A DNA stretch of 64,000 nt, from the NCBI RefSeq assembly GCF_003334305.1, contig NZ_QOWS01000005.1. The stretch is one strand, 5' to 3'. A program made the position numbers and the translations under genes. The notes under the pieces were generated by a model. It was given only the letters and a program-made list of their open reading frames with translations, was not told the origin of the DNA and ran no database searches. The stretch is from Escherichia coli. GTDB taxonomy: Bacteria; Pseudomonadota; Gammaproteobacteria; Enterobacterales; Enterobacteriaceae. Shown here piece after piece: positions 52,030 to 52,481 of this stretch; position 1 is the first letter of the stretch, and each line of letters opens with the position of its first letter.

Positions 52030-52481
52030 AGTCTGTCGGTCAGCTTTAATAAACCCTGCACTTATCTGTTTAGAGCAATTCGGTGTTAGTTTCAGCAAGC
52101 AAACATTAACCATAGCTAATGATTTATAGCCATATTAACCATTGGTAGCCCTTGACCTTTCCTGACACTTCCCTTGTTCGCAATAATATTCTGTTTAGTC
52201 ACGGTTTATAAATAACATGCATAATGAAATCGTCATGTTATTTAGCGACATAAAATGTTTTTGCAAATACTCTCTTCAACAAGTGCAGCAATAAACTTGT
52301 TGTGATTAGGTGTCCTTGTGATTTAAAGATATTATCGTTCTTCGTGAAATGTAATAACCCTGGAAACTATATTCTCAGGGCAACAACCAATCAAGAATGA
52401 TTCTTGTTTTTAAGCAATAACAGAATGACTTAATTGTTAACCCTCTTTATTCAGCTACTTAAATATAAATTTTGGAGAATT

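Follow-up and report, generated by a model that had tools for sequence, protein, structure and literature searches.

The window, i.e. the whole 64-kb stretch of Escherichia coli DNA that was analyzed, carries lsrK, an autotransporter gene, hipBA, the yneL pseudogene, genes encoding a major fimbrial subunit, a chaperone and an usher, and then ydeS, ydeR, ydeQ and ydeP, in this order. This is the E. coli F9 (also Fml or Yde) chaperone-usher fimbrial operon. The DNA of the locus is 100% identical to that of E. coli strain A7, and the locus is found in most E. coli genomes. F9/Fml fimbriae matter in chronic urinary tract infection, low-temperature biofilm and plant attachment, and their silencing at 37 C is understood in part only.

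The immediate surroundings of the fimbrial promoter vary among strains. The yneL pseudogene (51842-52050), the nearest upstream neighbor of the promoter, corresponds to the C-terminal helix-turn-helix part of an AraC-type regulator, and in CFT073-type (B2) strains the upstream flank from ~52085 is replaced by other DNA with an SDR oxidoreductase gene. A search of the literature on ydeT and yneL gave nothing useful on regulation. Downstream, the major subunit and chaperone genes are separated by a non-coding gap (53046-53396, ~350 bp, 30% G+C), at which a divergent Escherichia-like contig has an extra gene encoding a 165-aa fimbrial subunit (3174-3671 of the fetched DNA); the gap may be the remnant of a lost fimI-like gene. 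The same E. coli locus, leader included, is present at 99% identity in contig JARKOR010000214.1 of a MAG labelled 'Candidatus Nanosynbacter', this contig being almost certainly a binning contaminant.

Upstream of the major subunit gene lies a perfect 11-bp inverted repeat (Table 1), whose right arm is the exact reverse complement of the left one, as found by both direct reading and a script. The arms are separated by a 14-bp spacer, CATAATGAAATCGT, and the pairing extends at neither end. The repeat had been reported, with exact coordinates, in a sequence-only reading of this DNA, which placed it about 250 bp upstream of the major subunit gene in an AT-rich operon leader. The distance and the composition agree with our measurements: the repeat is 238-273 bp before the ATG at 52482, and the G+C content is 0.30-0.335 over 52100-52499, compared to ~0.47 in hipA and fmlA. 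The assignment to the leader holds for the right arm, which is transcribed, but not for the left one, which is upstream of +1, so that the repeat as a whole straddles the transcription start.

Table 1. Features of the F9 promoter and leader in the window (positions relative to the transcription start are given with the feature).
Feature	Coordinates	Strand	Source
-35 hexamer TAGTCA (CFT073: TAGTCG)	52196..52201	+	consensus scan and PMC3966885
Left arm of the repeat, TAAATAACATG, -23 to -13; promoter spacer DNA, untranscribed from the mapped start	52209..52219	+	
-10 hexamer CATAAT, -12 to -7, within the 14-bp gap	52220..52225	+	consensus scan and PMC3966885
Transcription start +1, G	52232	+	transferred from CFT073 5'-RACE
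Right arm of the repeat, CATGTTATTTA, +3 to +13; first transcribed bases	52234..52244	+	
5' UTR of the major subunit gene, 250 nt	52232..52481	+	RACE start and alignment
Best regional match (8/10) to the H-NS high-affinity motif TCGATAAATT, +8 to +17, over the outer right arm	52239..52248	-	
F9/Fml major subunit gene fmlA (RefSeq label 'fimA')	52482..53045	+	

The transcription start of the f9 operon has been mapped in strain CFT073 by 5' RACE to a G located 251 nt before the start codon, and the promoter elements established there are CATAAT (-10) and, 18 bp before it, TAGTCG (-35) (Wurpel et al. 2014, PLoS One 9:e93177, PMC3966885). When CFT073 is aligned to the window, the two are identical across the repeat, the -10 hexamer and +1, and the RACE G corresponds to position 52232 of the window. 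The published promoter is the same DNA as the window across the repeat, differing from it in the -35 hexamer and in the leader length: the window leader is 1 nt shorter due to a deletion further downstream, and the distance from +1 to the ATG is 250 rather than 251 nt. An independent consensus scan of the window yielded TAGTCA-18-CATAAT at 52196-52225, that is, the same hexamers as the published ones (apart from the -35 base given in Table 1). The arrangement is that of a sigma-70 core promoter, with hexamers at 18-bp spacing and the mapped start ~7 bp after the -10.

The dyad centre of the repeat is at -5.5, and its arms are found on both sides of the -10 hexamer and +1. The repeat is the core promoter of the F9 operon rather than an element of its leader. 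The promoter itself was already known; the repeat appears to have gone unremarked in PMC3966885, where the term 'inverted repeat' has 0 occurrences, and seems to add little. We also considered symmetry of the kind expected of a bidirectional promoter and rejected it: the 7-bp palindrome CATAATG is centred at 52223, compared to 52226.5 for the dyad, and the opposite strand has no usable -35.

The most conserved block of the region is 52151-52200 (-82 to -33), which varies in just one divergent lineage among 11 leaders. It holds a second promoter-like site, CTGACA-16-TAATAT (52162-52189, consensus scan), and the block may bind an activator or provide an alternative promoter.

Of 5,426 complete E. 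coli genomes, 4,876 have the repeat, taken as a 36-mer (arms and gap), each in a single copy; the 36-mer search revealed no second similar site in E. coli. Most records (4217 of 4877, 86%) are identical to the window, 639 have one mismatch (~13% of genomes), and 21 have more. The control 36-mer at -68 to -33 is identical in 4763 of 4855 records (98%), and the one at +19 to +54 in 3167 of 4864 (65%). The conservation of the repeat is intermediate between these flanking controls and is not special. In 11 diverse E. coli leaders compared position by position, none of the 11 positions of the left arm is variable, compared to one of 14 in the gap, two of 11 in the right arm, and 57 of 397 overall. 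Four one-mismatch genomes were sampled, three with C52234A (+3) and one with G52237A (+6); all of them combine a changed right arm with an unaltered left one, with no compensation. The same variants also appeared in two other comparisons of this DNA. Since E. coli genomes diverge little and the alignment across genera is weak, conservation tests are of limited power here.

With one genome scanned per species, BLAST gave no homologue of the leader outside E. coli, and divergent FmlA alleles (82-87% protein identity) have leaders nearly the same as that of the window, so they add little. Weak promoter homology was detected by sensitive local alignment in Citrobacter sp. JGM124 (FmlA 76%) and Morganella (FmlA 78%), with 1.7% and 0.3% of shuffles, respectively, scoring as well. 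The parts kept in the four-way alignment are TTTA of the -35 region, GTTTA, TG, ATAAT, and TCA.GTTA.TT at the transcript start. In particular, ATAAT of the -10 is invariant in E. coli, Citrobacter and Morganella. The left-arm counterparts, TTATTTATCTG in Citrobacter and CTAACTATATG in Morganella, differ, the final TG alone being conserved, and the right arm is partly conserved (CAAGTTAATT in both). According to a hand count from this weak alignment, the arms pair at 6 of 11 positions in Citrobacter and at 4 of 11 in Morganella, which makes the symmetry specific to E. coli. Lack of conservation in orthologous fimbrial leaders, named in the sequence-only reading as an observation that would speak against a functional site, is thus what was found, the symmetry being absent from the nearest homologous promoters.

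The chance level was estimated using dinucleotide-preserving shuffles, counting perfect inverted repeats with arms of 11 bp or more and at most 30 bp between them. The shuffled 64-kb window is expected to contain 0.49 such repeats and contains at least one in 43% of shuffles, so that one such repeat somewhere in 64 kb is unsurprising; the real window has six. In the 431-bp, 33% G+C promoter and leader region (from yneL to the fimbrial gene), a repeat of this kind is uncommon, arising in 0.76% of 5000 shuffles. The half-site is not enriched in the 64-kb window (32 matches vs 26.6 expected). Of the others, at least two are possible terminators, at 49739 and 61470, each beginning at most 15 bp past a stop codon. 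The DNA between ydeQ and ydeP contains another AT-rich perfect inverted repeat of 11 bp, TTTAATCTATT-N10-AATAGATTAAA (59026-59057), which precedes the start codon of ydeP by ~120-150 bp and is unrelated in sequence to the F9 repeat.

In CFT073, the F9 operon is repressed by H-NS at 37 C and expressed at ~20 C. H-NS shifts the 251-bp f9 promoter fragment in a gel, demonstrating binding at the resolution of the fragment rather than of the arms, and among ten regulator mutants of CFT073 the F9 subunit was detected at 37 C in hns only (PMC3966885). The H-NS sites predicted in the f9 promoter include +8, +57 and +89 (PMC3966885). Our scan with TCGATAAATT recovers four of the six predicted positions (-111, +8, +57, +89). 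The best match coincides with the predicted '+8' site, and a 7/10 match is found at 52205-52214 (-27 to -18), over the outer left arm; the total of 10 matches in the leader is not above chance (8.3 in shuffles).

Candidate sites for other regulators were compared with the repeat as well. In a Fur ChIP-seq study of CFT073, fmlA has a weak peak, with 0.38-fold expression in the fur mutant, and the summit (1778955) corresponds to approximately position 52388 of the window. A Fur box at the repeat was rejected: the gap starts with CATAATGAAATC, which looks like a half-box, but there is no match of at least 11/19 to GATAATGATAATCATTATC, and the summit is ~160 bp downstream of the repeat. The 5' UTR also has, at 52392-52406 (+161 to +175), a perfect 15-bp palindrome, CAAGAATGATTCTTG (7-1-7), 4-11 bp from the mapped Fur summit. 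It bears a loose likeness to the 7-1-7 Fur motif (8/14), and one E. coli lineage disrupts it.

The architecture of the repeat resembles that of a MlrA/BluR (MerR-family) site. In the palindrome at csgD, AAAGTTGTACA-N12-TGCACAATTTT, the arms are also 11 bp long, with a gap of 12 bp compared to 14 bp in F9, and both systems belong to a low-temperature, biofilm-related regulatory setting. However, the F9 arms hold ACATG/CATGT, the GTACA/TGTAC core is missing, and the position relative to the promoter differs, and a MlrA/BluR site was rejected. About 5 of the 11 F9 arm bases agree with the MlrA/BluR consensus AAAATTGTACA. Comparison by eye with the GadE GAD box and with IHF, ArcA, NagC and PhoB sites gave partial AT-rich matches, none of them convincing. 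No intact regulator gene is found next to the repeat, the neighbors being hipBA and the AraC-like pseudogene yneL; the HipB operator, TATCC-N8-GGATA, is unlike the F9 repeat.

Two of the possible explanations let the arms act as partners in RNA or in recombination. A hairpin in the 5' UTR, offered in the sequence-only reading, would affect stability, termination or translation of the mRNA. In a transcript covering both arms, these would pair (RNA -8.8 kcal/mol, z = -2.0; the stem as DNA, -6.9 kcal/mol), the upstream promoter-like CTGACA-16-TAATAT could in principle give such a longer transcript, and temperature-dependent control of fmlA at the translational level has been reported. However, the sole mapped start, published for identical DNA of CFT073, falls between the arms, leaving the left arm outside the mRNA, and since the right arm alone is transcribed, an RNA hairpin is excluded for the mapped transcript. 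Moreover, the stem is weak (all pairs but three are A-U), the repeat is too far from the start codon (238 nt) to mask the ribosome-binding site, the stem is not followed by a U-run, and the arms do not covary. The fold of the whole 250-nt 5' UTR is not unusually stable compared to shuffles (z = -0.76), and no Rfam family matched in the region. We consider a functional hairpin very improbable. Even less credit, close to none, can be given to an invertible promoter switch of the fimS type marked by the repeat. The F9 cluster is sister to that of type 1 fimbriae, which has an inverting promoter, and the -10 hexamer does sit between the arms, but these are merely 14 bp apart. A 48-nt query with the gap inverted had no full-length high-identity match in the 5,426 complete E. 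coli genomes. In 3,416 genomes, a 551-bp query that takes in the promoter, the leader and the fmlA 5' end matches colinearly; in ~1,500 further ones the match ends at a K-12-type deletion described below, with a second matching place in 10 records only. There is no recombinase gene among the ORFs between hipA and fmlA, longer-range inverted repeats around the promoter are at the chance level (70-88% matches of 16-22 nt), and neither orientation of fimS is homologous to the F9 promoter and leader. The switch itself, with 9-bp TTGGGGCCA repeats ~300 bp apart, differs from the F9 repeat in arm length and spacing and in its need for the FimB/FimE recombinases; it also drives the gamma-1 fimbrial operon, a sister of F9, and, like the F9 promoter, has short inverted repeats nearby. 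Four type 1 fimA loci served as a positive control, and both orientations of fimS occur among these assemblies (one in E. coli E69, the opposite in Raoultella, Enterobacter and Klebsiella assemblies), which means that assemblies do reveal real switches. The suggestion that this is not a fimS-like switch is thereby upheld: with no inversion in ~4,900 complete E. coli genomes, and no orientation heterogeneity among E. coli assemblies in the comparison that had been recommended, the switch is already refuted at the assembly level. The F9 promoter as a fossil fimS, suggested by a motif next to TTGGGGCCA in Raoultella, was rejected too, the fimS alignment scoring below the shuffle mean in both orientations.

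The remaining explanations concern proteins bound at the promoter, and among all those considered we lean towards the one in which the symmetry is incidental, E. coli-specific and without a function of its own, inside a known H-NS-silenced promoter. The 36-bp element is the core of the sigma-70 F9 promoter in a 30-33% G+C tract, with the left arm serving as the -35/-10 spacer, the gap providing the -10, the discriminator and +1, and the right arm being the first transcribed stretch. According to the literature on CFT073, H-NS binds this promoter region and represses the operon at 37 C, with expression at ~20 C. The perfect dyad is most likely a by-product in E. coli, forming neither an mRNA hairpin nor a recombination site. 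That the symmetry is not under selection is what we infer, and several observations go against it: a perfect 11-bp repeat is rare in the 431-bp region (see the shuffles above), its position coincides exactly with the -10 and +1, the place at which a repressor is expected to act (by a rough estimate, ~6% of random 36-bp placements in the region cover both), and little or no variation is seen in the left arm and gap among the E. coli compared. Some observations favor an operator for a dimeric or tetrameric repressor that blocks RNA polymerase at -10/+1 as a second layer to H-NS: the dyad is perfect and centred at -5.5, with arms at -23 to -13 and +3 to +13, such a repeat is improbable by chance within the promoter-leader region, and the operon, besides its tight silencing at 37 C, shows responses to temperature and in fur and pst mutants. 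In lac O1 and LexA boxes, a dyad is similarly placed over -10/+1, and the bound protein excludes RNA polymerase. However, the half-sites of F9 are 25 bp apart rather than ~10 or 21 bp, that is, ~2.4 helical turns between arm centres, a spacing that would not readily suit a simple dimer; there is no known cognate protein and no regulon of sites, and the symmetry is not conserved, being broken without compensation in ~13% of genomes (four sampled) and missing from the Citrobacter and Morganella homologues. An operator is further opposed by the lack of an adjacent intact regulator gene and of a second similar site in E. coli genomes, by the dissimilarity of the motif to those of MlrA/BluR (GTACA core) and Fur, and by the nine non-hns regulator mutants without an effect (PMC3966885). 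We regard such an operator as unlikely. Somewhat less probable still are arms acting as an inverted H-NS nucleation pair flanking the -10, from which filaments or bridges would trap or exclude RNA polymerase, loosening at 20 C. H-NS binding to the promoter fragment and repression of the operon, the 8/10 and 7/10 motif matches on the outer right and left arms, and the very AT-rich DNA agree with this, but the motif matches in the leader are no more numerous than in shuffles, H-NS does not need dyad symmetry, the gel shift on the 251-bp fragment is not footprint-resolved, and a later transcriptome study found no F9 thermoregulation. The smallest chance among these protein-based explanations is left to a recent E. 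coli-specific operator, at which a tetramer or dimer-of-dimers repressor would clamp -10/+1 together with H-NS. If true, it would explain the near-absence of F9 fimbriae at 37 C, and the common +3 and +6 variants of some lineages would be partial derepression alleles.

The evidence suggests incidental symmetry, in which case there is nothing new to conclude from it. In practice the gain is modest: the mapped -10 and start site are enclosed by the repeat, which rules out both the hairpin and the switch. The repeat also pinpoints -22 to -16 and +6 to +12 as the bases for probing factors besides H-NS.

Two types of deletions affect the region in other E. coli. In GPEC1185 and a few other strains, a ~490-bp deletion between TGCA(T) microhomologies near 51727 and 52219 removes the left arm together with yneL and the -35 hexamer, leaving the right arm and the -10 region in place; a partial match of this type is seen in ~9 records, with the junction at about 1490-1510 of the fetched GPEC1185 locus. 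In ~1,500 of 4,925 E. coli genomes, including K-12 and C, a deletion from ~72 nt into the leader (junction ~52304) takes out fmlA, the chaperone gene and part of the usher gene. The promoter and the intact repeat are kept, fused to the ydeT remnant (in K-12 MG1655, NC_000913.3 1590139-1590174, minus strand), and the promoter left by this deletion could drive ydeT'-ydeS-ydeR-ydeQ.
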